DNA of 60,043 nt, filler included, from Hausera hauseri (lineage: Eukaryota), in assembly GCA_046269625.1 (NCBI GenBank). It is 10 parts of 10 records of this genome, joined end to end, with 100 filler letters (N's around TTAATTAATTAA, not from the genome) between each part and the next. Parts side by side here need not be neighbours in the genome. Positions count along the whole stretch, not along the records: positions 39,616 to 47,445 come from JBJURY010902091.1; 9 more parts are not named here. The stretch is one strand, 5' to 3'. The notes beneath the pieces were generated by a model. It ran no database searches, had not been told where the DNA came from, and was given only the letters and a program-made list of their open reading frames with translations. Shown one piece after another: positions 18,606-60,043 of this stretch (position 1 is the stretch's first letter; each line of letters begins with the position of its first letter). The translations under genes were made by a program, and so were the position numbers.

Positions 18606-19983
18606 TCAATAGTAGCCAGACCAATCTTATATGTTCAGATAGTTTTAGCATTATCGTTGATTGCTTTTTGCATTCCGAGAACGCAAGCAAAAGGGTGGCA
18701 CGACGGATTTGCTACAGAAAAAAAACCACCAATTGGAGGAATTCAAAGATTATTACAATCAATGTCAATTCATTTCTATTCGTCAAACTCTACATGAGTC
18801 GGGTTCAGGGCTCAGAAACCACACCACGATTTTGAAAGATTCCAAATCATCCTAGACAATATAATGACAGAAGAAACCAAAAACTGTGATTTCAAACACG
18901 GAGAGTATACGAAATTCTGCGACGTAGATTTCGGACGTGCCTACGACCTCACTTATCAAATGTACGTACCAAGTTTATCTAAAGTTTATGAAATAAAGCC
19001 GCCATTTTAACTAATTATCCCTACACGAGACAAAAACCATGGAAAAGAACTGAACGAAATGCTGCAATATACTGATCCCGGTATAAAATTGTTAGATAAG
19101 AATATTTAGAGAATTGCTGTTGACCAGGCAAGATAATGCATCCAAGTAGATACCCGCATAGAATTAACAGATAGTCGAGAAATTAGTATCAGATTCGAAG
19201 CAACAACTGGACCGACCCCGGAAATAGAGTATTGCTCCATTCGTGCAGGTGTACAACATCCCTGCTGCAAACTGCCGGCGAACCAAGATTTCAGAATAAG
19301 ATTTGACTTATACGAGGTGCGACCAAATAAGCCAAGCATGCAATTACGCACTTACTATCCAGAAAATAAGATTTGGTAAATTTCAGTGGAAACCACGATA
19401 AATAAAGCTAGTCGAACTCTTACCTCAAACGACGTACCTAAAGTAGAGTTTGAAAATATACCTATCAAATTTTCGGCCCACCGGTATAAGATCGTGTTCT
19501 TCGTGGAGGAAAAACAAAATTACGATATATATAAGTTGTCGAATCACATATAATAAGCAAATGGTAACACTATTTAAAAGTACTTATCAAGCAGAGTGAA
19601 ATTTACTGAAACCACAATCTTAATACATAGTACAAGTGTATGCAGAGAACAAAACAACCCAAACAATTACATTGCATAATTTAGCTGAAATTCATGCGAA
19701 ACCTCACGCACGCGAAGATATAGACGACGAACTTACAAAATCAATTGCTGCTGGAGCACCACTAAGATTAACTGCTTTATCAGTTGCATCTATTGCAGTA
19801 CTGTCAACCTTTGTTCTGATTATATTAATTGCGATTTTTCGACTAGTTACCAAAAACTGTTATTCTAAGCGTCATAAAAATTCAGAATGGGAACTAAGGG
19901 AATTGGAGAACCCCGTAGATCCATATGATAAAATAACCTGTCAATTACAGATCAGGTTATTCTGTCATCAAACAAAGAATTGA
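18606..19983 (+). pseudogene. accessory type-I membrane protein (ORF-A), copy 1
   Basis: Signal-like SIVARPILYVQIVLALSLIAFCIP; YC-x9-CC motif; TM LSVASIAVLSTFVLIILIAIF; tail ELENPVDPYD. Confidence 0.7.
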
Positions 19984-34559: not shown

Positions 34560-35655
34560 CAGTCGATGAGTTTTTTCTTCCATTTTAAGGTAAGAGTTGA
34601 ATAGCAACTCAATTATCCTCAATCCATTGCACTATATCTTTACATTGTGGTCTCTTCATTGGCCCCATTTTGTTATATTCATGAACTCTGTCCATCATCC
34701 AGTTTTCCCATTGGACACTCAACTGGTCTTTAAACGGTTTGTTAACTGCAAGATCGAAAGGTTGAAGTTTTTTGGTTAACTCATCCAATATAATAGCCAT
34801 TTTAGAATATTTATTCACCATTGTTTTAACATCTGGCGTTATTTGAGCCCGACAAGAATCCAAGATTAACAGACATTTGGGATTAAAATATGCCATTTTT
34901 CTTGTCCGCCATACACTTTCTAACCAGAATTTCATAGCCTCTGAATTCATCAAATCTTTATCATTGGCACAGGCAATAAGTTTTCTGAGCCAAGGCTTTT
35001 TGGAACAGTCTTTCTTTTAAAAATTACCATGGGTGGTAACTTTGATCCATCTTCAGTTACGCAGAGCACAACTGTAAAATTCGATTTTTCATGACTCGTC
35101 GTAGTTATTGAAATTTCTTTTACACCATTCAAATTAACCGTTCTGGAACCCGGCATGTCAAAACTCACTGGAACTTCGTCCATGTTTCCAAAATGACACC
35201 CCTCAACTCTTAACAAATTTTCTTTAAGAAGTAACCGAAATTTTGTCGCATTCACATTCCAGTCAACCGGCAACATCTGTCCAACATTTGTGGAACATTG
35301 TACACTTAAGTTATTTCTTTTCATAAACCTAATATCTTTTATATAATCTTCTTGATCTATTCTTTTCGACTCCTGCAATATGCGAACTGTTGAAATTCTC
35401 ATACCTTTCATTCTTTCATTAGAAATCCACTCGTAAAGTTGTTTCCAAAGTTGGCCATCGGCAAGTGCCGTACCGCATGGCTCTTTTTTCTTAGGTACAA
35501 CATTTAACACGGCTTCAGACTTTCACCATTCTCTTATACTGCTTTCTTCAACATTATATAATCGTGCAGCTTCACGATTCCCTTTTATCTTTGCGCTTTG
35601 TACTACTTCAAGTTTGAATTTTGCTGTGTATGATTTCCTTTTGGATTTGCTAATG
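34560..35655 (-). mobile_element. pogo-family transposase (Brinker-like HTH, CENP-B HTH, DDE), decayed
   Basis: RKSYTAKFKLEVV..AARLYNV, GNMDEVP, LLILDS, LQPFDLAVNKPFK. Confidence 0.88.
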
Positions 35656-38849: not shown

Positions 38850-39515
38850 AGAGAAGTATACGTTCGTATAGATGAAGCAATAGTACTTTGGCCAGGCCAG
38901 TTACAGTTCAAGCAATACATCCCTGGTAAAAGCCACAAGAATGAAGTAAAATTGTATATGCTTACTGAGGCGTCGGGATATGTGTTGAACACTATTGTTT
39001 ACTGTGGGCGAGGGGATGTAATCAGTCCAGAACTTGGTCATGAAGGAACAATGGTGATGACACTTTAAAATCACACCTTTGTAAAGGACATCAATTATAT
39101 AAAGCTAATTATTATACAAACATCAAGTTATACAAAAACTAATAAATCATCAATGATCTGTGGAACTTTGCGTAAGAATAGAGCTCAACTACTACCTGCT
39201 ATAAAACATGCAAAGTTACAACGGGGTGAGATGGCACGTATACGTGATGGATGCATTGTTGTCGGTAAATGGCAAGATAAACGTAATGTCCCACTGCTTA
39301 CATCATGTTATTCGGGTGAAATGATTCAAAGCTCAAATCTTGGTAGACAACGCCAGCCAAATATAAAACCTAACCGTATAGTGCAGTACTATAGGTACAT
39401 GTCCGATATTGATAGAAACGACCAATTGATTTCATATTACCAACTATTTAGAAAATCGTTAAAATGGAATCGAAAAATATTTTACATATGATAAATATTG
39501 GTCTTGTCAATGCAT
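38850..39515 (+). mobile_element. piggyBac transposase fragment (PGBD4-like)
   Basis: IDEAIV..FKQYIPGK..KLYML, CGTLRKNR, KWQDKR, MSDIDRNDQ. Confidence 0.88.
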
Positions 39516-39625
39516 NNNNNNNNNNNNNNNNNNNNNNNNNNNNNNNNNNNNNNNNNNNNTTAATTAATTAANNNNNNNNNNNNNNNNNNNNNNNNNNNNN
39601 NNNNNNNNNNNNNNNACGAAGAGTA

Positions 39626-40948
39626 ATGTGGGACGGTGAAGGATCACCACAATGGGAAAACCTTATGGGTAAAGATTATCTAAAGAAAGTAACAAGAAAT
39701 GTTATGGAGAAGATGTGGGGAAAATTTCTATATTTTGGACAAGCCGCCTCTGGTTTCCTGGCTATCTATTTCATTATCAGTGCGTTACGAACAATATTTA
39801 CGGCCCTCGGTAAAGCATATGGAATACACGCAGCAGTAGGTTGTTCATGGAAAATACTAATAGCAGTGATACCAGCTGTAGCAAGTTGCTTTTTAGCTAA
39901 CCACGATGCGCGATGGAAGAAAAAAATATTGCAGAAGGGAGCCAATAAAGAATCTTTGTATAGCATACCTGATAATGACGGCCCCGACTATGATCAAGGA
40001 AGGACGAAAACAAAATACAAACAAATACCTAATATTAAACAAATAATGTTGAAGACACGAAAATCAAAATACCGACATAAGCTTGTGACAGATCTACCGC
40101 ATCTGGATCCCATAGACGAATATCATGGTCAACCATATAATGAACAATTTATAGCAAATCCTTCAGCTCCTAGATACGTGGTACATGCGGGATTGTACCC
40201 AATAAATCAAGTATCGCAGATGCGACAAGATTGTGAGGAAGGCGCAAGACCATATAGGCATGAACCAACGTGCAAAACCGACGATAAAGAAGAAAGATCA
40301 TATACAAGACCAGAAGTAGAAATCGAGGTAAACGGATATCCCATGATGGCTCTATTAGATACTGGATCTACCACCACCATAATGGGAAAAAGTCAACTAC
40401 CTAAAGAATTAAGAAAGAAGTTAAGAAGACCGAAAACCACTTTAATAAATGTAGGAGCGTTTGGTACGGAAGAAGAAATAAAGATGGTTCTTGACGCAAA
40501 TATTAAAATCGGTAACCAAACTGTGAAACACACGATAAGAATAGCCGAGAATTTGACAAACGAAATCTTAATCGGGTGTGATATATTAAGTCAATTAGAA
40601 AATGTATACATAGACGTAAAAACCAGCCAGTTGAAAACGTTTGATGAAGATAAAAGTAGAGGAAAGGTCGCGCTAATAAAAGATATCGTAATACCACCCC
40701 GATCTGAGATAATAGTGCCCGGAAAGATAGAAAGTCCAATACTATCAACAGAAGTATGCTTCGAACCATTCGCACAAGTAATGGAAAAGTATGAAATCTT
40801 GATAGCCCCCCATGTAGATAAAGTAAGGGAAGGAAGAATTCATTTGCGAATTTGCAATACAACAAATAAAGAAAGAAGATTACGAAAGAACACAAGATTG
40901 GGCGAAGTGACGACCAGTGAAGGTATAATTAAACAAGAAACAGGCTAA
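39626..40948 (+). CDS. polyprotein part 1: chuvirus-glycoprotein-like membrane-anchor region, aspartic protease, degenerate dUTPase-like beta domain (5' truncated by contig start)
   Basis: WGKFLYFGQAASGFLAIYF..AYGIHAAVGCSWKILIA; LLDTGS and ILIGCDIL; IVIPPRSEIIV..RICN. Confidence 0.75.
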   Translation: MWDGEGSPQWENLMGKDYLKKVTRNVMEKMWGKFLYFGQAASGFLAIYFIISALRTIFTALGKAYGIHAAVGCSWKILIAVIPAVASCFLANHDARWKKKILQKGANKESLYSIPDNDGPDYDQGRTKTKYKQIPNIKQIMLKTRKSKYRHKLVTDLPHLDPIDEYHGQPYNEQFIANPSAPRYVVHAGLYPINQVSQMRQDCEEGARPYRHEPTCKTDDKEERSYTRPEVEIEVNGYPMMALLDTGSTTTIMGKSQLPKELRKKLRRPKTTLINVGAFGTEEEIKMVLDANIKIGNQTVKHTIRIAENLTNEILIGCDILSQLENVYIDVKTSQLKTFDEDKSRGKVALIKDIVIPPRSEIIVPGKIESPILSTEVCFEPFAQVMEKYEILIAPHVDKVREGRIHLRICNTTNKERRLRKNTRLGEVTTSEGIIKQETG

Positions 40949-40981
40949 ACGGTATCTGATATAGATAAAATAGAAAAATTA

Positions 40982-43447
40982 ATGAAAGAAAAGTTAAAAG
41001 GAGAACCGAGTAAAAATATAAAGAAGGTTAAAACAACTAATATTAATTGGCACGAGAAGTTACAGAATTGTCAAATTTTAACACAAGAAGAAAAGAAGAC
41101 GCTAATAGAATTATTACAAAAGAATAATGCCCGGTTTGCCCAAAATGACTATGATTTAGGTACAATGAACGCGATACAACATACTATTAAATTGAAAGAA
41201 GGACAGGATAACCCAATCAAAAAGAGACCATATCGATTAGCATACGATAAAAAACAAGAGGCGCGAAAAATAATAAAGGAAATGAGAGAAAACAAGATTA
41301 TTCGACCAAGCTGTTCCCCTTGGACGGCTCCTGTAGTAATGGTCAAGAAAAAAGACGGAACTATGAGATTCTGCATAGATTATCGGGCATTAAACGAAAT
41401 TACTGAAACGGATACGTACCCATTGCTCAGGATTGATGAAATATTAGACAGACTCCACGGATCGACTATATTCTCAACCATAGATTTGCAAAAAGGCTAT
41501 TGGCAAGTGGAAGTGAAGGAAGAGGACAAACCAAAAACAGCTTTCTCAATTGGAGAAGGATTATGGGAAATTAACAGGATGCCATTTGGGCTGAAGAACG
41601 GACCACCAACATTTCAGAGAGGAACAGAACTTCTATTGTTGGACGCTCCACATGCTATGGTGTATATTGATGATGTAATAATAGCATCACCAAATTTCCA
41701 ACAACATTTGAAAGATCTGCAAGATCTCTTTGACATATGTGAGATCATGGGTTTGAAGATAAATTCGAAGAAATGTTCTTTTGCCCAGACAGAAGTAGAC
41801 TTTTTGGGACATAGAGTAGACAGATATGGTGTAAAACCACAGGATAAACTATTGGGAAAAATAAAAGATTTTCCAAGGCTGACAACAGTTAGAGAACTAC
41901 GCCGATTCTTAGGCTTGGCCAACTATTATCGGAGATTTATAAAGGATTTTAGTAAAATCGCAAAACCTCTATATGAGCTATTACGTGAAGATCTAGATAC
42001 GGTAATTTGGACCACCGACTGTCAAAAAGAATTTGAATACTTGAAAGAAAGACTAGTAACTGCTCCGATATTGATCTACCCGGATATGAACAAACCATTC
42101 ATAGTAGCCACAGATGCAAGCGATTATGGAGTTGGAGCAGTGCTATCACAAAAGGGTGAAGACGGTAAGGAACACCCAGTAGCCTATGCATCACGAAAAC
42201 TCAACAAGCATCAAAAGAAATACGCCGTGATTGAGAAGGAACTGTTGGCAGTAATATTTGCGCTAGAAGTATTTTCACCGTATATTAGTGAAAATAAACC
42301 ACTATTAATATACACGGATCATCGACCATTACAGTGGTTGAAGCAACACGAAAATCCGAATAGCCGATTGTTACGATGGGCTCTTAAATTACAACCTTAC
42401 ACATTAAATTTCCAGTATAAACCTGGAACGAGAAATGCCAATGCAGATTATCTATCCCGAATGACAGAAAATCCAAAGGTAAAGAAAGAAGTAATAGCAG
42501 CCGTCTGGAGTATGGACGGATCAGTAGAAAAGATTAAACAAAACCAACAGGAAGACTCCGAAATAAAAGTAATAAAAAATTTTATAACGAATAAAGTATT
42601 GCCAGAAGATAAAGAATTAGCTAGACACTTAGCACGATTCGGTGAAGCATATGAAGAAAAAGATGGATTTTTATATTATATCCACCAAGACGGACCAGCA
42701 TTGGTGATCCCAAGGAAAAATAGAACGGTTTTATTAACACAATATCATGATGGATTACTCGGCGGGCATCAATCAACCAGGAAGACACTCAGTAAGCTGA
42801 AACGAAAGTATTTCTGGCCTACAATGATGAAGGATGTACAAGAATGGTGTGAAAGTTGCAAGCTTTGTGCCACACGTAAAAATACTGGATCGAAATTTAA
42901 AGCGCCGCTAAAGGTATGGGACAATCCCCCAGCACCATTCGAATTTACGGCAATGGATATAACAGGGCCACTACCATTAACCCGAAATGGAAACCGATAC
43001 ATTTTAGTCTTTATTGATTACTTTACTAAATGGGTTGTAGCCATACCAATGGCAGACATGAAGGCAGAGACAATTGCTGAAAAGTTCGTGGAAAATGTAG
43101 TGTTTAATTACGGAGCCCCGAGGATTATTCTAACTGACCAAGCCTCCAATCTAACTGGAACTGTAATGCAGTCCATATACGATATTTTAAAGATACTAAA
43201 GCTACGCTCTACACCAGGACATCCAGAAAATAATGGATTAGTTGAGAGGTATATTGGAGATTTGAAAGGAAAACTGCAAACAGTAGTTAATACCAGACAA
43301 GACGATTGGGACGAGTATGTCAATGCATGCGTATTCGTAAATCAAACGTCAGTTCACGAAGCCACTAAAGAAACACCCTTTTATCTTATGTATTTACGGG
43401 ATGCAAGATTACCCATCGACTTGGATTTTAATGTGAGACCTGTCTAA
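40982..43447 (+). CDS. pol: Pol: reverse transcriptase, RNase H, integrase core
   Basis: CIDYRALN, MPFGL, VYIDD, ATDAS, YH..GGH..CESC.LC, MDITGP/TDQA/LVER triad intact. Confidence 0.95.
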   Translation: MKEKLKGEPSKNIKKVKTTNINWHEKLQNCQILTQEEKKTLIELLQKNNARFAQNDYDLGTMNAIQHTIKLKEGQDNPIKKRPYRLAYDKKQEARKIIKEMRENKIIRPSCSPWTAPVVMVKKKDGTMRFCIDYRALNEITETDTYPLLRIDEILDRLHGSTIFSTIDLQKGYWQVEVKEEDKPKTAFSIGEGLWEINRMPFGLKNGPPTFQRGTELLLLDAPHAMVYIDDVIIASPNFQQHLKDLQDLFDICEIMGLKINSKKCSFAQTEVDFLGHRVDRYGVKPQDKLLGKIKDFPRLTTVRELRRFLGLANYYRRFIKDFSKIAKPLYELLREDLDTVIWTTDCQKEFEYLKERLVTAPILIYPDMNKPFIVATDASDYGVGAVLSQKGEDGKEHPVAYASRKLNKHQKKYAVIEKELLAVIFALEVFSPYISENKPLLIYTDHRPLQWLKQHENPNSRLLRWALKLQPYTLNFQYKPGTRNANADYLSRMTENPKVKKEVIAAVWSMDGSVEKIKQNQQEDSEIKVIKNFITNKVLPEDKELARHLARFGEAYEEKDGFLYYIHQDGPALVIPRKNRTVLLTQYHDGLLGGHQSTRKTLSKLKRKYFWPTMMKDVQEWCESCKLCATRKNTGSKFKAPLKVWDNPPAPFEFTAMDITGPLPLTRNGNRYILVFIDYFTKWVVAIPMADMKAETIAEKFVENVVFNYGAPRIILTDQASNLTGTVMQSIYDILKILKLRSTPGHPENNGLVERYIGDLKGKLQTVVNTRQDDWDEYVNACVFVNQTSVHEATKETPFYLMYLRDARLPIDLDFNVRPV

Positions 43448-43606
43448 CATTTAATGGAGGTGCAGGACTATAAACAATTAATTTAAAAACGTCTTCAGTT
43501 AGCCTACAAAACGATTTGTGGAAATCAAGAGGAGTATAAATCCAAATACAAGAAATACTACGATAAGAAGACCAAACAGCCAAAAATTAAAGTAGGTGAT
43601 CAAGTA

Positions 43607-45241
43607 ATGTTATACTCACCAGCAATAAAAAAGGGTAAAACCTCTAAACTGGATAGACCTTACAAAGGTCCATACGAAGTAGAGAAGGTAAGCCTGCCAA
43701 ACATATGTTTGAAGAAGAATAATACGTCGGTAAAGGTCCATATTAATAGATGCAAACCGGCAGCTCGAAGAAGTGAGTTAAGGAAAGGTGAAAAAGAAAT
43801 GGTACTAAGTATAAGAGAGATAAGACAAGAAAAATCTACTTATAAAATGTATTGGACAGTAAAAAGTCTATTGTTAACTATCATCCTCGTATTACCCCAG
43901 ATAGCCGGACAGATGACAGAGCAAGAAATTGAACGAGCAAAGGTACGACATGCGGCGGCCATAAACGAGGATCTATGGTTAAAAAGTTTGAAATATCAAA
44001 TAACGTATTCTATGAAAGGCCAAAAATGTATTCACTGGTATGCCACAAGACGAATGTCTAGCGAGTATATTATAAGGATACGAACAACCCCAATCTACGG
44101 TTATGAGAGGAACTCTGATGAGCGAAATAATGATTGTATATTACGGTCATCCATAAATGAAAGAATATGTCCAATAGATACCTCAGGAACACACGAAGTG
44201 CATCTTACCCTCATGAAGAAGCAAGGAGACTACTATCATAGTCTATATACAAAGTTTCACAGGTATATTCGAGTCCCAAATAGACATGAAATGAACGAAA
44301 CACTACTCGACGAAATAATACTCAGACAGGTAAAGATAAGACCAATGGGATTTAAAAGTGGACGAAGTTGCCTGGAAATTAGGAGCTTGATAGAATTAGA
44401 ATACATTCGATGGATAACAATATCCATAAAAGAAACAGGAAGACGAAAATTGTCCAAATGCAGAATAACAGTAGACCAACAACAAGTTTGCTGCAATGTA
44501 ACAAGAGGCAGAATATACGAGGTTAAATATACTTTATCACGAAAGGAATACGGAAAACTGAGAAATAAAACGCACAGAAAGGGACCAACGATGTATATAC
44601 TATATAAAAATCAGAAAGAATATAACGATATACCCGAAAAAATAGCGCCCTCTGTACAGCCCTCGACTGATAAAATGGAAAGGACTATTCTAGTTAAACC
44701 CTACACATCATACTATCGGGCAAAACGATCTATATGGGAGAATGTTACTATAATAGCAGCCCCGTCTGCGTTAATCATTTCAGTCAGACCAGACTTAGAT
44801 TTTGTAAAAATCAAATTCAGTTGCAAGAAACAAGATATAGTGGTAGCTAAAGGAATCATAACCCCGGATGATTTGGTAGTACCATGTGCAGCCTTAGATC
44901 CAAACACCCGATATACAATAATTTTACAGTTGTTAGACGATAAAGACAAAGTAACATCTACTAAAATAATGACAGCAATCACGAAAGTAAAATATGACAT
45001 AACCGTATTTCATAGGACCAAAACGATTAACCATAAGATAACACTTGAACTCACCCGAACAGTGTATGCACACTCACGGTTAGAAATAATATGTATAGGA
45101 ACAATAACCCCCGTTATATTGGTAATCATAATAACAGTAGCAAGTAGATTCGCATGCAGGCGACTCAAAAATAGAAGGAGCTGGGTCAGAATCGATATGC
45201 GTAATCTAACGAACCCGTTAGATACCGACAATCCCAGCTGA
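43607..45241 (+). CDS. integrase C-terminus (GPY) in frame with accessory type-I membrane protein (ORF-A), copy 2
   Basis: YKGPYEV..VHINRCK, then signal-like MYWTVKSLLLTIILVLPQIAG, Cys-patterned domains, RAKR, FN3-like LDPNTRYTI, TM IICIGTITPVILVIIITVA, basic tail. Confidence 0.8.
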   Translation: MLYSPAIKKGKTSKLDRPYKGPYEVEKVSLPNICLKKNNTSVKVHINRCKPAARRSELRKGEKEMVLSIREIRQEKSTYKMYWTVKSLLLTIILVLPQIAGQMTEQEIERAKVRHAAAINEDLWLKSLKYQITYSMKGQKCIHWYATRRMSSEYIIRIRTTPIYGYERNSDERNNDCILRSSINERICPIDTSGTHEVHLTLMKKQGDYYHSLYTKFHRYIRVPNRHEMNETLLDEIILRQVKIRPMGFKSGRSCLEIRSLIELEYIRWITISIKETGRRKLSKCRITVDQQQVCCNVTRGRIYEVKYTLSRKEYGKLRNKTHRKGPTMYILYKNQKEYNDIPEKIAPSVQPSTDKMERTILVKPYTSYYRAKRSIWENVTIIAAPSALIISVRPDLDFVKIKFSCKKQDIVVAKGIITPDDLVVPCAALDPNTRYTIILQLLDDKDKVTSTKIMTAITKVKYDITVFHRTKTINHKITLELTRTVYAHSRLEIICIGTITPVILVIIITVASRFACRRLKNRRSWVRIDMRNLTNPLDTDNPS

Positions 45242-45352
45242 CGATTATGGTTAGGGATTGCAATAGAGGCAACCCCAAGTAAAAAGATAACTAAACGACA
45301 TCAAGTTATCTTACTCGCTAAAAATAACAATAAAACCACAACGATTACCTAT

Positions 45353-46675
45353 TTGGTATGTTTGATAACCGTTGTGTTGTGTATAAGTATCATGATAAAC
45401 GACCCATTAACTTTTATATTTACAGTCGCAGCAGCAACCTTCCATCAAATCCAGAATATTCATCGATCAAAGCATTGGTATGGTAACGCCAAAACCCACA
45501 TTATTAACGCCAGTCCTGCCAGTCAATACTATGTCTCCCATAATGACAATATGACCAGCTTGAATTATCCCCAGACACCGCAGATACCGAATAATTTGAA
45601 AGGTTATAGTATGGCCAATCGATCTCTGGCCTTGATGCAAATAACTAAAGCTACTTCGTTCCTCCTAACAGATATTATAATTCTACCTGATCGTTTTCAC
45701 TCAATGGGTGTGTACAGTATTGTAGGGCAAATCCAAATCAAGACAACGGACAGAAAAACTTCTATCAAAGGCGATCTAATAAATTTAGACTCAGAACATG
45801 GACTTGCTTTCGACTTCTCATTCCTAAAAGATAATACATTCAAGATTCGTTCTTGTACCAATAGGGTGATCCTAGCACTGGAAATAATAAAAAACGAAAA
45901 ATTCTATCCCAGTCTTCCTGAAGGTAAATGTTTTCACTTGCCGGAGCCCGATTACGTCAAATACAGAACTATTCCTTATCGCAGAATAGAAAAAGTTTCT
46001 GATAACGATATGGTCGTAGTAGCCGTCAATCTGGCCTGCGACCAATGGAATCAACTTCAGCTAACTGAAGCCTCAGTCTTAAATCTTAACGGTGACACAT
46101 TATTCTATGGCATTATTACCCCGAGACAACGTATCAATAATTTTGATACACACATAACAGGTCTCACAGAATTGAATATCAATAACCAAACCGATCCAAC
46201 GGATTTCTATCGGAAGGTGACCGAAGTTATCACAGATAGAATAGTAATTGGAGCCGACGTGGTAGAGATGGTGATAAACCATCTCAAATGCCCCATCCGA
46301 CGGATTGCAGGAGTACGTGATATTTTATGTCACGAGGACGTCATCCGCCGGTACCAACTATCAACAAACACCTACAAAGAATTAGCCCGCAAATTTTATG
46401 ATACAAAGGGCTTCACTCTCAGAAGTACTGCGTTAGCTCAATGCTACCAGTCAATATACAAACAGCTAAAGTGGACGGATGAATACATTGCCCAGAGCGC
46501 GGCCTCCAATCAGGTGCGAACAACACCAACTACATCTCAAGGTGGAAGAAAACGAAGAATCCAGTTGGACGAAACACTAGTACTAGACGATGAAGTATAT
46601 GAGCCTGAGGCAATTCGATACAAGTCAAGAACCTCTGGCAAATATATGCATGTACCCATAACGTTGGACCAGTAA
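45353..46675 (+). CDS. accessory ORF-B, copy 2: DEDDh-exonuclease-like domain with substituted catalytic residues (true start probably via splicing at 45425)
   Basis: VVAVNLA..LTEASVLNLNG..LFYGIITP..INNFDTHITGLT..IVIGA..VRDI. Confidence 0.72.
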   Translation: MVCLITVVLCISIMINDPLTFIFTVAAATFHQIQNIHRSKHWYGNAKTHIINASPASQYYVSHNDNMTSLNYPQTPQIPNNLKGYSMANRSLALMQITKATSFLLTDIIILPDRFHSMGVYSIVGQIQIKTTDRKTSIKGDLINLDSEHGLAFDFSFLKDNTFKIRSCTNRVILALEIIKNEKFYPSLPEGKCFHLPEPDYVKYRTIPYRRIEKVSDNDMVVVAVNLACDQWNQLQLTEASVLNLNGDTLFYGIITPRQRINNFDTHITGLTELNINNQTDPTDFYRKVTEVITDRIVIGADVVEMVINHLKCPIRRIAGVRDILCHEDVIRRYQLSTNTYKELARKFYDTKGFTLRSTALAQCYQSIYKQLKWTDEYIAQSAASNQVRTTPTTSQGGRKRRIQLDETLVLDDEVYEPEAIRYKSRTSGKYMHVPITLDQ

Positions 46676-47545
46676 TAAATTGAGGACAATTTCTCAAAAC
46701 CCCCGTCGAGTTGTTAACGAACTTTACAATTGAATAACGAAATTCGAAATTTATTGTTGACATTGTTGACATTGCGAACCTTGAAATTAACTATTTACAC
46801 GACGAATTATTTAACTACTATTGAAATGATCTATGATCAAATAATATCATCGTGTCATTTACGTGATCATCAAATTTATACCTTTGTGCCATTTGCATGA
46901 TTTGTGGAATTTTCTAAATGTTTTATGAAATTTTGATTATACTACATGTATTATTCCTACGCATCATGGAATTTTTATCATGATAATACCATATGAAGAC
47001 AAGTATATAAAGAACGATTTATGGTACACAATTCACAATTATTTACGACTATTTACAATTGTTTTTTTGATCATGTCGTCACGTAAGTTTTGTGGTTCAA
47101 TGTATGTTCTGTTTGCTAAATTGGTCGTTTTATATGTATTGTTAAAATAGAGTTATCGTATAATAATATTTGTTGAATTTTGTTTTATAAATAAACTCAA
47201 TAACTAATTAACCTTAAGTAAAAGTGGCAGAATCTCCGACCAGGTAAAAGCGACCTGACGGAGGCCTCAATAAAATTTAAGTAAAAACATAAGATAATAA
47301 TCAGTAAGTGAGTAAAGCAGTACCTAATTTCTCATACCCCTCTTGTAACACATTACCTACTTATACTTAGGTAAGATTAGCCTTACATCAGCTCTCCCAA
47401 CGATAACGTATACTTTGTTCAATATTCTGTAAAAATAAATAAATANNNNNNNNNNNNNNNNNNNNNNNNNNNNNNNNNNNNNNNNNNNNTTAATTAATTA
47501 ANNNNNNNNNNNNNNNNNNNNNNNNNNNNNNNNNNNNNNNNNNNN

Positions 47546-48945
47546 ATGATGATAATAATGACGATGCACTCCCACCAAATGATTTCAGAACAATCGATAT
47601 ATATCCGAACTTCGATGATATAAAAATGACAGAATCATGTGACGTTTTTCTACGTAGAAGCAGAATTACCGGATCTTATCGATCTGTTGATGATTACTTA
47701 GATGTACAATTTCGACTTATGAAAGAGGATTTTGTTCAACCTTTTAGAGAAGGATTGAAAATGTTTGATAGTGATCGTTGTAAGAACAGGGTCGACGTTC
47801 GAGTCTATGAGGGTGTTAGATTATTGCGATGCTTGCCATTTGATCGAGAGGGCATTATTTACTACTTAAAATTTCGAACATCGAATCTTACAAATGTAAA
47901 CTGGCGTCAAACAAAACGTTTTATCTATGGTTCTTTCTTGTGTTTATCAAAGACTTTCCGAACTTTATTGTTTGCAACTGTAGCTTATAGTGATATGAAT
48001 GAGTTGGAAGAAGGTGAGGTAGCTGTAAAGTTTCATAACTCAGAACCGGAATATGGTGTCCATTACACACTGATTGAGCCCATCACCATGTTTGAAAGCT
48101 ACCGCCACGTTTTGCAGAAATTAAAGGACACAAATAATACGAATTTATGTTTACAAAACTATCTCATCTTTCCAAATTCATCCAGTCCTGTTCAATCTCC
48201 AAAATATTTGCTTGAGAATCCAACACTAACATTTTTGATCGGTGAAACTAGTCTCTCTCTCTCCATTGAATTCCGAAGCAGTTTGGCCTAATCTATCCAG
48301 TCTTGGACTGGACGAATCCCAGTTTCGTGCCTTTAAAACAGCTATAACGAAAGAAATATCGATTATTCAAGGTCCTCCTGGGACTGGAAAAATCCACGTT
48401 GGATTTAAAATTTGTAAATGTCTTTTGGAAAATGTCCAACGAAAGTTACCAAATTTCGGACCCATTTTAGTCGTATGTCATTCTAATCACGCCTTGGACC
48501 TTTTTCTTAAAGGAATTTGTGATGTGACCAACAAAATAGTTCGAGTTGGTAGCCAAAGTAAACCGGAAAAATCCGAATGTTTTCATTGTTACAATACAAA
48601 AAACGTGCTGATTTAACGGATTTTATGGAAACTAAAAGTAAAATGTTGAGCGAACTGAGATAGAAACCGATCTTTTGCATGCGCATACAAAGATAGAAAT
48701 CGCCGAGTTAATTCGACCGATTTACGATCGCCTTGACAACCATGAAATGGTTTTGAAATATGACAACTTTCAGTCGATGGATACGAATTTATACTTTTTC
48801 CATCATACAAATCCGGAAAATTCGTGTTATGATAGTTTTAGTTATTCAAATCAATTCGAGATGGAATTCGTGCTAGAATTCTGTAAACATCTTATTAAAT
48901 CCTGCACTGATGGTTCGAAAATCACGATTTTGACGCGTATATTCA
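47546..48945 (+). pseudogene. ZNFX1: ZNFX1-like SF1 (UPF1-like) helicase fragment, frameshifted and internally deleted
   Basis: PPNDFRTIDIYP, YLDVQFRLMKEDF, NWRQTKRFIYGSFLCLS, LDESQ..IIQGPPGTGK, VVCHSNHALD. Confidence 0.85.
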
Positions 48946-49609
48946 TGGGGTTGCGCAATGTCGTATTGTTGCTTTGGGCTACTGATCAAAAACGATTTGT
49001 CAATGAACGGCTGCTACAGAAATGTTTTTTAGTTCATGGCTTGGTTAGAGTAGCCCTTTTGACATAAATTGTACCGGATTCCCTTAGGATTTATGGAATT
49101 CATGGTTATATTAATTATGGTTTCACCAATTACCCGGTTGATGTCTTCTGTAATCAGCCAAAAAATTTGTTCTCGTTGGAGCTAATTTGTCTGATATTGC
49201 TGCTGCTCCGCATTTGAATAGCTTACGGGCTAGTGTAACGATTTTAGAAGAGAGTGCACCAGTGAAAGAAGCTGGAAAGTTGATACCGATGAAATTGAAA
49301 AGGTTCGAATTGGTTTCATCGGATAATCATACGTTGTCCCACCAAATGATTTGGTTCTTATCGGCAATACTCAGATTTTTACGGGATAATACCGTGTTGA
49401 AAATACTTCTCGACGAATTCGGAAACCAAATTATCACTTTCGAATGTAAATCGATTGATGATGTATTTATATTTTCTGTAAATTTTTCCAAATTTCCAGT
49501 ACCCGACGATAACAAATTTCGTGCGAGATATTTAATAAACAGATTACCGACTTATTATACGCTCACCTATTTAACACTACGTTTCTATTTATTAAAATTT
49601 GCATGTGCT

Positions 49610-49976
49610 ATGAATAACCAACTTCGAACTAACTTGTCTCACAAGGAATTGTCCTTGTTCAAAAGCATACTGAAATGCTACGACCAGAAATAATTTAAAA
49701 ACGGTTTAAAATTAACCAAGCAAATTTTATCAAATCCAAAATTTTCGGAACATGGCGAAACGTTAGCAATGAAAGGACTTATATAAGTTGTATGGGTAAA
49801 CGAGATGAAGCCTATGACCTCGTCAAAAGTGGAAATCGTAATGATATCAATAGTTCAGTTTGTTGGCACGTTTATGAGTTAGTCCAAAAGTTATAGGCAA
49901 TACGCTGAAGCCATGAAATGTTATTTGAGAGCATTGAAAATGGATAAAGATAACACACAGATATTGCGCGATTTGA
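49610..49976 (+). pseudogene. NAA15: NatA auxiliary subunit (NAA15/NAA16) N-terminal TPR fragment
   Basis: [66 protein letters not shown]; stops and frameshifts, no introns. Confidence 0.85.
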
Positions 49977-53095: not shown

Positions 53096-53172
53096 ACTAC
53101 TACTTCTGCCAAAGTCTCGGCCTTTTGGTCTATTAACGCTATAAGCTCGATGAAATGAGTCATTCTGTCTAC
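53096..53172 (+). repeat. 77-bp exact terminal direct repeat (= 59967-60043)
   Basis: actactacttctgcc...cattctgtctac identical at both contig ends. Confidence 0.97.
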
Positions 53173-53279
53173 ACAGGTCAAAAGGTATTTGTTGTTTTTG
53201 TGAGGCAATGGTCCTACAATATCCATGGACATTGCCTGCATTGGTCTATCCGGCACATTGATGGGTTTAAGTTCGGTGA

Positions 53280-55132
53280 CTTTCCCTTAGTCATTAGTGA
53301 TCTCAAACGATCCTTACGTTTCCGTCTCAATGACGGGCTGCGGCCTGTACTCTTTGTAATCTTAAGTATTAGTGGTTCCATAAATTCCTTTTCTTCGTCG
53401 GTCTCCACCTTTTGGCTTACCTTTTTCGCCATATACTCTGGTTCTGCGACTAAATATACTTCGTCCGGAGTCTCAGGTTTTCCTGTTTCGTCTAACTCTT
53501 TCTTTATCGTAGAAATATTCTTATTCCGTGCCATATCAATAAGCCTTCGCGGGTCAATGGAACGTTCATATTCAGTTTTCGGTTCACGCGGGCCATGGTA
53601 AATTTCTAACAATGGTAATTTATGCTCGTACGCGTTTCTGGCCACTAAGACTTTAGGGTCTTTAGTGTTAGGTGGGGCCTTTAAGAAACGACGTAAGTAT
53701 TGTATCTCAATGATCATACCTGTGCCTTTACGGACACCGTAAATTACTTCTAAGTTTTTGTTTTTAATTACATTAGTTTTACTAGGTTCCACAAACGAAA
53801 TACTTCGTGGATTTGGACAGGATCTCGCTATGTGTCCTTCTTGTCCACATGAGTAACAAATTAAGTTGCAATTTCGCCGACTTTTGTTGACCGTCTTCAT
53901 TAACCGGGGATTTCGATCTACTCGGATTCCTATTGCAATTCTGATGTTGCGGGGCTTGTCTGGGATCACCATACTGGCAGTTATCATAACTTCGGCAGTA
54001 ATTCTGTCGATTTCCTTTGTTAAAATCTCTGGAACTATCTAGGCGTCTATCCGGATCGTGGTTTAGTTTACTAAATGAACTATTACGGCTACTATCAAAA
54101 TTCCGATTATCATATAGACTACCTTTGTGATAATGGTTATTGTTCTTATTACGGTCCCCATAATTCTTGTTAAATCGCCTATCATTTTTATTATTCCGAT
54201 TTCTATCGCTTCGATCACTTTGATCATTATTTCGATCATTTCTGTCGTTGTTTCTGGTATATCTGTCCAATGTCATTTCTAAGTCCTGAGCTAATTTCAA
54301 TGTTTTATCAAAGTTCTCCGGGAGCACTAGAATCAATTGCTTTACTATGTCTCTAGACCAAATACCATTTATTAACTGCGTCATCATCATGATGCCTAAA
54401 TCTGGAGGACTTGCCTTTTCTGCGGCTTTGCATTTTGCTTCGTTTTTAGCCTTGGCTATGTTTGCTATCCTTGAGGTGCTTACGTAACTGTTTCCCAATT
54501 TCTTTAAGGCAAACACCAATTGGGTTATTGATTTACCGTTCTGTTGTACTCTATTCTAAAAAGCCATGAGTTTTTGTTGAGGAGTTACAGTCGGCAGTAG
54601 TTTTCGGTTCAGGGCTACCACCAGGGAGGACTAGGTTTTCTTTTCGTCGTCAGTGAGCTCGCTATAGGCATCATCGGCCAAATTCTTTAAATATAGTGAC
54701 AGACTCTTAATCATTACGTTAGATGCAAGTCCGGCACCTTCTGCGTGCAGCTTATAAATTCTCAGGAATTCATTGAGTCCGTCTGTGTCTCCGTCGTACG
54801 CCGGCAGATTTAGAGAGTCAAATGTAAAAATGTCCGGTTTCTGCGCTACTGCTTGACTTTCAATCATGTTTTCAACGTTTATCAGATTTTGCTTAATTAT
54901 CTTACGGGTTCTAATTCTTTTATCAGGAACTTTAAATTTAATAGACTGTTTAGCAGCGTTTAAGTCTATGGGTTCAGTATTAGCTAAGTTTGTTTCCGAT
55001 AAGGTGCGTCTACTCAACGTCTTACCTTGTCTGTATACTTTATTGCGTGTTTGGCGAAGATTAATATCCTCCTTACCGTTTAAGATAGAATTTAAACTAT
55101 CGTCCGAATTGTGTCTATCAATATTCGTTCAT
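53280..55132 (-). pseudogene. gag: gag with capsid-like region, N/R/D-rich linker, CCHC knuckle and ~180-aa downstream extension
   Basis: LPAYDGD..EFL..YLKNLADDAY; CYSCGQEGHIARSC. Confidence 0.82.
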
Positions 55133-55389
55133 GCTTTATTCAATTTTTCCGTTAGTTAAGGAATAATCAATAACTCTCCTTCCCAATAAACTATTTTTAT
55201 ATTTGCAAATTTACTGAAGATTCAGTGGTTAATAATAATAAATTTTCATTATTAATTTCTAATACTAATATTTATTTTCAGTTTCACTTTCAGTTTTGTT
55301 TTCCAGCTTCACTTTCTGTTTCATTTTTCAGTTTCGTTTTGATTTAGTTAAGTACAATTTTATTTTACTGCCATTTTACTACATTTCTC

Positions 55390-57800
55390 CCTGAACTGCA
55401 CTCTTGGATGTGCCAATTTCGTCAGAAGAGGTGCCGCATAATCTGTTCAATCGTCCGCGCAAGTTCGCTTCCGAATCCGATTCATCTTGCGGCGATGGCG
55501 GGTCAAAGTGGTAGGACGTAGTGCGTTTTGGGGGCAATATCTCCACTATTTTTTATTTTATCCATTGGCGTAGTATCTCAGTCTTGTAGCCTCAGCTCTA
55601 CATACAGTGCAGGTCGTCTTCCCATTTTTCAGGGTTTACGTTTCTAAACAGTACCGGCAGTACTTGTGGGTACAGTCTTCATTATCCAACACCACGAATC
55701 CTTGGTATAGACTGGCATCACAAACATGGCACTCTTCTTTTTCTCTTCCATCTATGTCTACAAGGTTCTCGTCAACTTCTATTCGTTTAAATAGTAATCC
55801 ATTTTTATCTTGATATAGGTACCCATATAGTCTTTTTTGTTTTGGATCGATGGAGCTTTCTTGGGGTCATCTGATACGGTGACTAACGTCCATTCAACGA
55901 TTTCTTGTTGGTCTAAGTCTAGTATTCCAATCTTCTTATATTGCCTTTTTAATTGTATTTGAACTTGGGTATCTACCAGAATGGTTAATCTATTGGTACC
56001 GTTTTTTGACTGGAATATTGGGGGTAAGTATTTGTCAAAGGTTATGTCCTCCCGAGCGTATCCATTCCCACTTACGATTCTCCTAGGAACAGTGGATACG
56101 TAGAATATGGCTTCCTTGATCTTGCCTTTTCTGTAATATTTGGCCATGACGAGCATTCTGGTATACTCCTTTACTTGCCCAAATTTTGTGACTTTGATAT
56201 TTTCATCCTTTTCCCAATTCTTCCAAAGAACTTTCATTTCCGTTTTACGGGACTTTGTATCGGCAGTTCTCATCTTGATCTCGTCGGGATTTTCGGCTTT
56301 TTGTCTTTTGGGTTTTTCGCTATGCTCATTTATTCGTTTGTTTGGCGTAGAGCTATTAGCAGGTGACTTGTTTTTTTCCACTTGGTTCTTACTAGTTTTG
56401 CTCTTTTTCTTGCTAATATACTCTAAGAAGGAAGTTTTAGTCTTTTGTCCTCTCAAAGTTTTGGGGTTACTTGAATTTTTTTCAATTTCTTCTCGGGCTC
56501 GGCTGGTCAACGGTACCTGTTGGCTGTTGGGCATTTCCACGGAACTATTATGAACGGTTACTCGGAATCGGTTGTGTTATTGGGGTTCGATTTGTCTAGG
56601 AGGTGGGTGTTCGTTAAACCCTTTTCGAAATTTTTGTATCAAGATCTTTGGGTTGTGGCCGGACATCACATTCTGTATGGAGTTCCTGGGTTTCCACTCA
56701 TGTTCCCATCTCAACGAGGCGTAAATATTCTTTATAAGCTTCGTACGCGGACTCGCTGACATTAGTTTAGGAAATTTAAATCGTTCGCCATTCATGGCTT
56801 CTAACATCATTTTGAAATGTGATTCACGTGATGCTGTCGGAAGTAGTCACCCTCTTTTCTTCATCAAAACGGTTTCTACTCGACTTGCAACCGTTGGATT
56901 CCGATTCAGTTCGCGAATTTCGGCTATATACTCTTGTCTAATTCCCAGTCGTTCCAACATTTCGTGCACTCGGAATCCGGTTGCAATACATCCACATAAG
57001 AAATGGCTTATATCTTCCTGTATTTCGAAGAAATCTTCCCCTGCTTCGAGTTGTACTTTCGTAATTCCGGTAACATCGGCAAAGGTGTCCTTCACCCTAG
57101 TTCTCGGTGCAATTATTTTGTTTATAATTTCTTCCCAGTTTGTATTTCGAATATCGACTTCAATCGGCGCATACCATCCATCATCCTTTTCTCCATAGTT
57201 CACGGCTAAAATTGTAGTATTGCAGCCGTCTGGAATTAATTTATAAGATTCGCCATTTTGTTCTATTTCATCTTCTGAAGGCTTTTGCATGCACATTAGT
57301 GGTGGTAGCGGACTCATTAATTCTGTCCGCCAGGTCATTTCGAACATGAGTATGGTTGGGAGTTCTGCGATTCTGAATTCCAAAGCATAGTTCATGAGAC
57401 TATGGCAACATAACTCATAAGTGCTAAATTTCCATTGTTGTTCGTTTTGTGTGCTCCAGGATTGTCCTACGATTCTGTATTGGATTTCTCCATCAGCTAC
57501 ATGTACGTACAATTACTGATGAGTTGGTTCATATGGAATCATATCTCTCAACAGGTATGCTCGTGCGTCTCTGGGGCTTCGCACTGCGTATAGCCGAATC
57601 AGTCGATTGTCCTCTAAACCCCATTTCAACCAATTTGGTATTTTACTTTCCTGACCGATTTCGACATAAGTTTTGTTTTTCAGATTCCCTCCAATTTGAC
57701 GATAATGGTTTGAGGACTGTTACATGCTGTTGCAGGAAGTTGTCGATGTCATGTTCGGAGCTGGTTGCTGAATTCTTTGCCTTTTTGGTCATATTTACTC
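55390..57800 (-). pseudogene. accessory ORF-B, copy 3 (pseudo-exonuclease, basic linker, domain X, C3HC4 RING)
   Basis: ORFs starting at 57512, 56810 and 56540 share one frame; ILAVNYG..PIEVDI..IIAP..VTGIT; CHVC..CTHKYCRYC..CTVC. Confidence 0.75.
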
Positions 57801-57897
57801 TGCTGAAATAAAAATAAAGGTCAATGCTAAGACAGATCATCCTTTTGAAACAAAACATTTTCTCTGTCTGATGATAGGATAACCTGGTCTGTAATTG

Positions 57898-59237
57898 TCA
57901 ACTTATGCTATCATAAAGTTCTTCTCGGCACCCTTTTACCCGTTTATCTCTCTGTCGATTTTTACTGCGTTTATTACAATTTTTGGAAAATAGAAAAATC
58001 ATCGCCGTTAATATGACAAGAACAAAAATTGACAAACTTAACATATCTATCATCGGTAATTTGTTTGGTTCAATAGAACCTTTTGTGGTAAACGCATTTT
58101 GAGTACTAAGATCTTTATAGTGCATTACATCAATTTGCTGTCAAGAGTTCGTACCGTAAAAGTTTTAGGGTTTTACCCTTCGCGGTGATTAGGATTACAT
58201 AGTTATGCTGCGGTCGTAATGATGGCATTCAGTTTCCTGACTATTCTTTCTTAGGATTATGATTCGGTTGGTGTGCAGGATGCGACATTCAATTTTAACG
58301 TCTTGATTTAACGTTCCTTCAGCGTAAAATAGGATTTTATCACTTTTTGCTAAAGTCTTAATCAGTATGCTCCCTAGTTTCTTTTAGGGTATTTCATCTG
58401 AAGTGACGATCGCAGTAGTGAGAGTTGTACTTGGAATAGAGGACGTATTCCTCGTAGTGGTTGGAAACGGACGCTTCCATATTCCGGTTTTTGGGCGGTA
58501 TCCTCGTAAGTAAGTACTCGGTTCTTTAGGGTAAGTATTGTAGAGATCAAACTGTAACTGGTAGTTGTGTTCTAGCTGCAATCTACAACATACAGTAGGC
58601 TGTCTTCGTGCGAGATAACAATACTCCTAAATAGGGACCGAGGCGTTCAGTGGTATAAATCGGACAGAAATATGTCTGTCTCCTGACAGTTCTATTTTGG
58701 TCTCAATTCGGGTACATTAATTCTTTAAGTCCTTGAAAATCCCAATAATTTTATAATCTAAGAGCCTTTTAAATGGATCAGTACATTGGATTATCTCATC
58801 CATCTTGGCTTGATTCGTGTCATTTCCTTGAGGCGTCCTTATTAAAAGTTCAGTAATTATATAGGCTTGGGCTCCGGGTTGATTATAATAGAATATTTGA
58901 AATCTGTATCGGTATGTTTGTCCGAAATCCAAACTACAACACTTCCTATGAGCTCCGTACGGAAAGTCGCAAGTTTTCATCGTGTACCTAGTCACGAATA
59001 TAATTTGAAATTTTACCTGATTCTGAATAGGTTTACTTGCTTCAAACCACGCACATGGTTTGCTCAAATCCATATCATATACTCTAAGTGACTGTAACTT
59101 TTGAATATCCTTTAGTCTTTTGCATATTGTAGTTTTTCGGTTAGGGTTATCGACCTTGTCTTTGGTATATACGAGGGGATTAACGATAAGGCGAGTACTA
59201 TTTGTACATACGATATTGGTCTAGTCACTATAGACAT
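57898..59237 (-). pseudogene. accessory membrane protein ORF-A, copy 3
   Basis: MSIVTRPISYVQIVLALSLIP; C..CC repeats; TM MLSLSIFVLVILTAMIFLF. Confidence 0.72.
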
Positions 59238-59264
59238 CGTTTTCTTTTCTTTATTCGTATAATT

Positions 59265-60043
59265 CTATTTTACTTTGCTCGAACGCAAACTGTAGCGTTT
59301 GTTTGGTCTTATTTCCGTTTTAACTACTCTTTGAATTGATATGACCTCCTCCTTGCCGTTTTTATTTATATAAACTGTGGTTGGTGTAGTTTTGATAACT
59401 TCATAAGGTCCTCTGCCTGTCCTGGTAAGTTTAAGAGATGTGCCTTTCTTTGCCAGTTTCCTGGCTCTAGATCGTGTGGTCTCGCCTTCTTGTTGCATTT
59501 CCTCTTCAATTGTTCCTGACATTCTATAGATAATTCCTTGGCTATTTCCCAACACTTGTGTAATCTGGATTGCAATACTTCGACAAAATTTTGCTCTAAG
59601 TCTTCCGTTCTTGTTGTATATGAGATCAGTCCTAAATCTGTGGGCAGTACAGTTTCTCTACCTTAAATCATGAAAAATGGAGTGAATCCCGTCGCAGGAT
59701 GTGGTGTAGTATTAATGGCAAAATGTGTGCCTTCTAAAAACTCGTCCCAATCTTTCTGGTCTTTTCCAACTACTGTTGATAAGATTCGTGTAATTGTCGC
59801 GTTCATCCGTTCAACCATCCCATTACATTGTAGATGATAAACTGTGGTAGTTAATCGTTCAATTTCAAAAATTTTGATAATTTTTTTGAACAATTCTCTC
59901 GTAAGGTTTCTTCCTCGGTGTGTCAAAATTTGTTCAGGTGGTCCGTATCTGCAAATAATTTTCCGAACTACTACTTCTGCCAAAGTCTCGGCCTTTTGGT
60001 CTATTAACGCTATAAGCTCGATGAAATGAGTCATTCTGTCTAC
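59265..60043 (-). pseudogene. gypsy integrase core and GPY domain, copy 3
   Basis: Near-identical peptide blocks to 17760-18600 (CNGMVER, FAINTTPHP, RGPYEV). Confidence 0.9.

Follow-up and report, generated by a model that had tools for sequence, protein, structure and literature searches.

A predicted accessory type I membrane protein that follows the integrase in the same frame in an envelope-carrying Ty3/gypsy element of Hausera hauseri

Envelope-bearing LTR elements of invertebrates are, to our knowledge, mostly reported to have a single surface protein. The window analysed here (a stretch of 60,043 nucleotides from Hausera hauseri, assembly GCA_046269625.1, which consists of short animal contigs joined by N-linkers) contains an element whose integrase frame runs on into a further coding region, here called ORF A, which is followed, behind one stop codon, by a second region in the same frame (ORF B). 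A first-pass annotation had suggested that ORF A encodes a membrane protein with cysteine-patterned repeats, released by signal peptidase, which would give the element a second surface protein and might act in receptor binding, as a receptor decoy or in superinfection exclusion. The locus raises the question of what kind of protein ORF A encodes, whether it is made together with the integrase, and what it could do for an element that already carries an envelope gene. We conclude that ORF A, which continues the integrase frame of a Ty3/gypsy element with an env gene, is predicted to encode an accessory type I membrane protein. The evidence is derived from sequence, and comprises, for the main copy (that of contig JBJURY010902091.1), the single reading frame, the signal/ectodomain/TM layout and a readthrough-type context at the ORF A stop, and, across two distant families, homology and purifying selection. 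The features discussed are collected in Table 1, together with two broken homologs of ORF A found elsewhere in the window (copies 1 and 3).

Table 1. Positions, in the window, of the main element, of its ORF A and ORF B, and of the ORF A homologs.
Feature	Position	Strand	Remarks
Contig JBJURY010902091.1	39616-47445	+	part of a Ty3/gypsy element, env-PR-RT-RH-IN order
Fusogen, C-terminal end	39617..39979	+	Monjiviricetes fusion glycoprotein family; gene truncated by the contig start
Aspartic protease	40304..40600	+	in frame with fusogen; Pfam RVP E 1.3e-11
RT, RNase H, integrase zinc finger and core	40949..43447	+	Pfam; same frame, stops 40946, 43445, 43484
Integrase tail	43487..43785	+	GPY/F motif at 43667; tblastn to integrase tails of copies 1 and 3
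Open junction and ORF A signal segment	43786..43909	+	Met 43799, Met 43847
ORF A domain 1, Cys-patterned beta sandwich	43958..44290	+	FN3/Ig-like; low-confidence model
ORF A domain 2, Cys-patterned beta sandwich	44291..44560	+	FN3/Ig-like; AlphaFold2, repeat alignment
R-x-K-R site	44717..44728	+	chance-level, unconserved
ORF A domain 3, probable FN3-like	44738..45016	+	signature at 44894; model unreliable here
Transmembrane helix and basic cytoplasmic tail	45074..45238	+	helix 45074-45160, Kyte-Doolittle 2.77; tail of 26 residues
ORF A stop	45239..45310	+	CAR-YYA-like context (1 mismatch), hairpins downstream
ORF B	45242..46675	+	ORF A frame, 477 codons, first Met at codon 51
Copy 1, broken ORF A homolog	18606..19980	+	distant family; 19939 followed by an exact CAR-YYA hexamer
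Copy 3, broken ORF A homolog	57892..59237	-	stop 57900, then exact CAR-YYA; hairpin in common with copy 1

The main copy is read in a single frame from the contig start to 46675, where the only stops are those at 40946, 43445, 43484, 45239 and 46673, and its lesion load is low: four stops in 2352 codons (one of them being the stop between ORF A and ORF B) and no frameshift over 7 kb. The protease-RT-RNase H-integrase order, the Ty3-like RT and the GPY/F integrase tail place the element in Ty3/gypsy (Metaviridae), and Ty3 Gag-Pol is the best PDB match of its Pol (E 4.6e-112). As had been proposed, ORF A would be a second surface protein beside an Env: the C-terminal part of a fusogen, located upstream of the protease, matches positions 520-625 of the 653-position profile of Pfam PF24664 (E 1.1e-14). 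This class III-type glycoprotein ahead of pol corresponds to the arrangement of GAG-ENV-POL gB-type errantiviruses, and we call it gB-type on the basis of the statement in PMC13524379 that Chuviridae-like glycoproteins resemble gB; the gag of the main copy lies beyond the contig start (which falls inside env), and only the env-pol order is visible. Env ahead of pol is reported for gB-type errantiviruses of Nematoda, Bryozoa and Platyhelminthes (Chary and Hayashi, PMC13524379). By hydropathy, two hydrophobic segments close the fusogen ahead of the protease (39743-39910, +); Pol would remain in the cytosol if these are a single anchor with a membrane-proximal region, but not if both truly cross the membrane.

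The element belongs to a multi-copy family, with 15045 contigs in run X1 and 2181 in run X2 at 80% likeness, covering all 30 bins. In both runs, another letter predominates in the contig depth at the first stop of the integrase, and this stop is therefore taken to be a lesion of the main copy. Ahead of the probable 3' LTR, at the place expected for a polypurine tract (46680-46720, +), an A-run is followed by a C-run, not a G-run; copies 1 and 3 have a purine-rich stretch at about 22520 and 55390.

Behind the integrase, the frame does continue past the GPY motif into a signal-like segment, as the first-pass annotation had stated: 43487-45238 (+) is stop-free for 584 codons, from the integrase tail through ORF A, and contains a signal-like hydrophobic core at 43856-43909. 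The topology of ORF A was derived from hydropathy and the -3/-1 rule. For a putative signal-peptidase cut after 43909, assigned by hand, the residue at -1 (counted from 43910) is small and that at -3 is Ile; the suggested release by signal peptidase is compatible with this, since the junction could be cut there. The two domains with a common cysteine spacing were also recovered, with C-x9-(C/x)-C at 44135/44168 and at 44459/44489/44492, and they form an internal repeat (best cross-domain z 7.3, reached in 0 of 500 shuffles), domain 1 of the main copy by itself giving z of at most 1.2 against the others. At the C-terminal end, the anticipated transmembrane helix and basic tail are both present (Table 1); the tail bears two N-P pairs, and this motif also occurs in copy 1 and was not found in copy 3.

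Among the elements of the initial description that did not hold is the furin-like RAKR. The site exists at 44717, but R-x-K/R-R occurs in 3912 of 10000 shuffles of the ORF A ectodomain, and no such motif was found in the ORF A frame of the ectodomains of copies 1 and 3. This bears on whether ORF A could itself be a fusogen, new or of class I type, activated at this site. A mildly hydrophobic stretch (44744-44785, 2.12 over 13 residues) does lie behind it, but the conserved furin site followed by a fusion peptide that characterizes class I fusogens was not found in ORF A, and the element already has a fusogen upstream of its protease. Domain 2 is moreover modelled as a small beta sandwich, and on these grounds a fusogenic ORF A is very improbable. 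The region after the R-x-K-R site, where a class I fusogen has a heptad helix, is modelled as strands, at a pLDDT below 50. A search of viral folds with the full model showed no fusogen among the 50 matches listed, but carries no weight in this judgement, as that model is of low confidence.

The ectodomain looks instead, in the models, like a three-domain receptor ectodomain of FN3/Ig type. The full-length single-sequence model has a pLDDT of 43.8, and its Foldseek matches, three-domain fibronectin fragments (best E 9.8e-8, TM 0.16), are a lead only; domain 1 in this model reached a structural Z of up to 8.1 over residues 38-150. The Torso ectodomain was considered as a donor and rejected, the full-model match (Z 7.7, rmsd 16.7) being too weak to name one. 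For domain 2, AlphaFold2 with a six-row repeat alignment gave a model of 90 residues with a short helix and six strands (pLDDT 83.3). Compared with 48,161 chains, this model obtained Z values of 6.9-5.6, none reaching 8, with FN3 domains (from fibronectin, cytokine receptors and adhesion receptors) tied with the Ig-like domains of glycosidases: the match to a GH2 Ig-like domain (Z 6.9, rmsd 3.5, 82 aligned) and that to fibronectin (Z 6.6, rmsd 3.0, 84 aligned) are equivalent. Judging by title, the 50 matches listed are mostly FN3-type or cytokine-receptor chains; the best Foldseek E for domain 2 was 0.047. The FN3-like repeats suggested initially receive support from the model of domain 2, a sandwich of FN3/Ig-like type. 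Two cysteine positions are unchanged across the six domain copies and are located on neighbouring strands of the domain 2 model, which fits a disulfide between them.

The ESM Atlas neighbours of ORF A are FN3 proteins (0.92-0.88), at a recognition value of 1962, below the reliability mark of 2300. As for the FN3-like strand proposed initially, the L-x-P-x3-Y signature is present at 44894, in domain 3, and in copy 3 at 58219, but it is weak alone, the same pattern arising in 536 of 10000 shuffles. Pfam fn3 gave no match in any of the three ORF A homologs at E up to 10, and we therefore do not file ORF A as a member of the FN3 family.

The ectodomains of copies 1 and 3 are related to that of the main copy, with z values of 7.4 and 6.6 (0 of 1000 shuffles each). 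At 20 and 25% identity, respectively, they represent a distant family, and their treatment as copies of the main element was rejected. Between copies 1 and 3, ORF A is 35% identical over 206 codons, with pN 0.43 and pS 0.75; their integrases are 74-86% identical, with pN 0.10-0.13 and a pS similar to that of ORF A (8 of the 11 rows of this comparison were dropped as wrong-frame integrase pairings and, dS being saturated, only pN and pS are quoted). These values indicate that ORF A is kept by purifying selection and evolves much faster than the integrase, a divergence pattern as expected of a retained, host-facing protein.

The contig of copy 3 (53096-60043, -) has a 77-nt direct repeat at both ends and contains, in this order, an integrase tail, ORF A, ORF B, a RING-like region and gag with a CCHC knuckle, which leads directly into an integrase core, with no Env, protease or RT. 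One possibility is a one-LTR circle, another the collapsed tandem array of an internally deleted element. Further features lie elsewhere in the window. The contig at 27847-33977 has 184-nt direct repeats at both ends (95% alike) around minus-strand ORFs, one of which (30322-30972) ends in a SOCS box (Pfam E 4.9e-8), and no RT was found in the ORFs scanned; it is possibly a non-autonomous LTR element with a ubiquitin-ligase adaptor. At 47546-49700 (+) there is a ZNFX1-like helicase gene in several short frames, with no evident introns (Pfam ZNFX1, AAA_11, AAA_12), possibly a decayed retrocopy of an antiviral gene. Remnants of DNA transposons lie at 38900-39500 (+, piggyBac-like DDE_Tnp_1_7), 34612-35522 (-, DDE_1) and 11540-11866 (+, mariner-type transposase).

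Outside the window, relatives of ORF A were sought in several collections. Word-index searches among proteins of near length yielded none from 3675 candidates with the single protein and none from 5492, at E up to 1, with a three-row alignment; phmmer against 1,835,955,588 cluster representatives gave no match at E up to 0.001, and no host donor among them; PDB sequences gave one match (E 0.36), unrelated. Scans of contig collections, which are mostly microbial and in which an empty result is not proof of absence, confirmed none of 8 pattern matches for ORF A (viral contigs), none of 87 and 116 for ORF B (metagenome and viral contigs, respectively) and none of 172 for the integrase alignment (metagenomes). 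These results also concern the idea that ORF A is merely a captured fragment of a host receptor, with no role for the element. Its receptor-like layout would agree with such an origin, but the same position is occupied in two distant families, pN is below pS with the cysteines conserved, ORF A is intact in a multi-copy family and the phmmer search revealed no host homolog; we regard this explanation as hardly credible.

Whether ORF A is made fused to the integrase depends on the junction between them. Of random 29-codon stretches with the base make-up of the junction, 11% would lack a stop. In runs X1 and X2, one contig each aligns with both flanks and preserves the 103-nt length of the junction with diverged letters (these contigs are known by length, their letters not being shown). 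The 40 variant rows listed (out of 1788, runs X1 and X2) include none inside the junction and do not bear on whether other copies have a stop there. With so few lesions in the main copy, the loss of a natural stop is unlikely (a few percent, by our estimate). The fusion described by the first-pass annotation is consequently upheld for the main copy, on the open frame, the low lesion load and the retained junction length, and it is probably the true state of the main-copy family. For the other two copies, said to be in frame with the integrase end and separated from it by a single TAG, the description is right for copy 3, where the GPY/F motif and ORF A share a frame with a stop between them, and wrong for copy 1, where the GPY/F motif is in another frame (owing to a 1-nt offset inside the integrase tail) and the stop is at a different position. 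For the junction stop of copy 3, which lies within a 22-nt block missing in copy 1, the chance that it is a random lesion is 21%.

Alternatively, ORF A could be an ORF3 of its own, with translation starting at Met 43847 on a sub-genomic or spliced message, and the open junction would then be incidental. From that methionine the signal would be a canonical one of 21 residues, with A at -3; a Met with A at -3 stands directly before the signal core in copy 3 as well as in the main copy, and together with the junction stop that precedes it in copy 3 this makes separate translation plausible. There is also a precedent in the Tor elements of Oikopleura, for which internal promoters of env-like ORFs are reported (PMC4402516). 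On the other hand, ORF A occupies the same frame in two families that are only about 20% alike, the junction is open in a copy with few lesions, and its length is retained in a diverged subfamily. A purely separate ORF3 is, in our judgement, unlikely, but fused and separate routes of expression can coexist.

At the other end of ORF A, the sequence context, on which the first-pass annotation had not remarked, suggests that the stop may be leaky. CAR-YYA is the readthrough signal of tobacco mosaic virus, and in other viruses 3' stems 7-12 nt downstream stimulate readthrough (PMC3159437, PMC2194720); among LTR elements, PMC2829016 cites SIRE1 as a case of stop suppression. The ORF A stop of the main copy is followed by a hexamer with one mismatch to CAR-YYA and then by 477 open codons in frame, whereas the hexamer behind the copy 3 stop is exact, and copy 1 has this same hexamer at the homologous place after a sense codon. 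As a background, the 6518 stop triplets of the window include 8 with the exact hexamer and 183 with one mismatch; TGA plus the exact hexamer occurs twice, once at the ORF A/ORF B stop site of copy 3. The one-mismatch standard is weak alone, being reached by 6 of 79 ORF ends (the lesion stop at 43445 included), and the context test was post hoc. Conservation points in the same direction: in the 60 nt around the stop, copies 1 and 3 have a DNA identity of 0.77, compared with 0.47-0.70 in the rest of ORF A, and behind the stop the encoded peptide is best conserved when read in the ORF A frame (score 70, compared with at most 44). The hairpins of the main copy (45245-45344) are more stable than those of shuffled sequences (z -3.97, 0 of 200 shuffles), and a 12-pair stem is retained in copies 1 and 3 with two compensatory pairs, although the hairpin of these copies is not significant, with energy z values between -0.8 and -1.4 and 122 of 500 shuffles in the control. 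On this basis, readthrough joining ORF A to ORF B appears likely, a little less securely than the fusion upstream. At 45349, about a third of the contig depth in runs X1 and X2 carries one extra nucleotide, through which the start of ORF B could be out of frame in some copies.

A hydrophobic segment opens ORF B (45332-45436, with a value of 2.59 in the main copy, and of 1.57 and 1.08 in the other copies) and is followed by a middle region; ORF B may lie on either side of the membrane. Its C-terminal part resembles DEDDh nucleases of ISG20/REX4 type (ISG20L2, E 6e-4 over 69 positions), and the Pfam RNase_T match in copy 1 (E 0.0022) is under the cut-off; by eye, ORF B looks intact, with the first acidic motif seemingly replaced. 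One natural relative was found in ENA (P0003, 55% identical). Behind ORF B, copy 1 has a C3HC4 RING finger (22160-22540, +; Pfam zf-C3HC4 E 2e-4), of which copy 3 retains a decayed counterpart (about 55800-55600, -), and the ORF B of the main copy is without a RING.

Based on these observations, we propose a mechanism in which ORF A would form the end of the Env-Pol polyprotein, from which the host signal peptidase would release it. Pol would be cytosolic after the Env anchor, and the hydrophobic segment behind the integrase would act as an internal signal; the cut after 43909 would leave Pol tethered to the membrane until the protease of the element frees the integrase. ORF A would thereby reach the same membrane as Env, in about equal amounts, and Met 43847 may additionally allow its separate translation. 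Its three FN3-like domains would be displayed and would bind a host surface molecule rather than fuse membranes. A minority of ribosomes would pass the stop at 45239 and add ORF B, which is nuclease-like and perhaps RNA-binding; a cytosolic ORF B could, speculatively, link genome-containing cores to the membrane patch of ORF A. We favour attachment or adhesion as the role of ORF A because it would be co-produced with the fusogen and its tail is short, but this account as a whole (a polyprotein tail, freed by signal peptidase, acting as an attachment or adhesion protein beside a gB-type fusogen) is put forward tentatively, at somewhat less than an even chance. Host-like binding proteins next to a fusogen are familiar from the herpesviruses (gD with gB), and the poxviruses have interferon-receptor decoys; no sequence relationship to these systems was found.

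A different role, that of a receptor mimic which modulates the host, is nearly as likely as attachment, given the receptor-like fold and the RING in the sister family, though we would still call it doubtful. Here ORF A would either bind up a ligand as a decoy or serve as a surface adaptor by which a host protein is removed or silenced, the latter through the readthrough product, with its nuclease-like domain and (in the family of copies 1 and 3) the RING; the superinfection exclusion through receptor down-regulation suggested initially is one form of this reading. The top fold matches of the models include cytokine and growth-factor receptors, ORF A evolves fast, the 3' accessory block has a RING finger in copy 1, and Burro has ubiquitin and apoptosis domains (PMC6431247). 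FN3 folds, however, serve many roles, the W-S-x-W-S motif of class I cytokine receptors is absent by eye from the ORF A translation, the ORF B of the main copy ends without a RING, and the phmmer search found no host donor. Conversely, gB-type errantiviruses are mostly described with Env alone (PMC13524379), and a separate attachment protein is therefore not a requirement. The most complete version of the attachment account would be a two-protein envelope from one polyprotein, with a gB-type fusogen ahead of Pol and a new FN3-type receptor-binding family behind the integrase, both freed by signal peptidase, plus a membrane-anchored, RNA-binding pseudo-nuclease made by readthrough, which would replace matrix or silence host defence; taken jointly (two-protein envelope and programmed readthrough pseudo-nuclease, with the RING in the sister family), we consider it a rather unlikely combination.

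Compared with known systems, the element is closest in its backbone to the GAG-ENV-POL gB-type errantiviruses, with which it shares a Ty3/gypsy Pol, a fusogen upstream of the protease and the multi-copy state; the available text of PMC13524379 does not mention a second membrane protein and has no occurrence of the word "fibronectin", and its supplement 1 gives coordinates only. The giant planarian gypsy elements Burro/GYPSM1 likewise have Env in frame between gag and pol, a RING, and accessory domains either as separate ORFs or within the polyprotein, but their description, in the text available, includes neither an FN3-like type I membrane protein behind the integrase nor readthrough (PMC6431247), and the visible part of the main element is without their dUTPase, BIR and BCL2 domains. 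Non-fusogenic ORFs behind pol (DEDD nucleases and small transmembrane ORFs) are reported for the ORF3s of the bdelloid rotifer elements Juno/Vesta, as separate ORFs and with intact DEDDy sites (PMC5408684), whereas in the main element the integrase frame continues into an FN3-like ectodomain, and a stop of leaky type precedes the DEDDh-like ORF B. A single stop between two in-frame ORFs is also found in the soybean LTR element SIRE1, where it separates pol from an env-like ORF (PMC2829016), while here it separates two accessory ORFs of an animal Ty3/gypsy element; the CAR-YYA-like context resembles that of TMV, and hairpins follow it downstream, as do the stem-loops of alphaviruses and benyviruses a few bases on (PMC2194720, PMC3159437). 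PMC12440569 (Troyka), as far as its available text goes, had no relevance here.

Each of the ingredients is already known separately, that is, the element type, accessory domains in a polyprotein, DEDD ORFs (PMC5408684) and readthrough. In the literature covered (with Repbase and subscription papers outside its scope), neither an FN3-like type I membrane protein in frame behind an integrase nor readthrough between two accessory ORFs was found. What appears new is the accessory protein family of ORF A and its position directly following the integrase in one frame. A second, fast-evolving receptor-like protein, kept across distant families, would offer a handle on target-cell choice, entry and host evasion by these elements. 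Its in-frame position, together with the likely readthrough, would add two expression strategies to animal Ty3/gypsy elements, and screens for env that end at the fusogen miss such an accessory surface gene.
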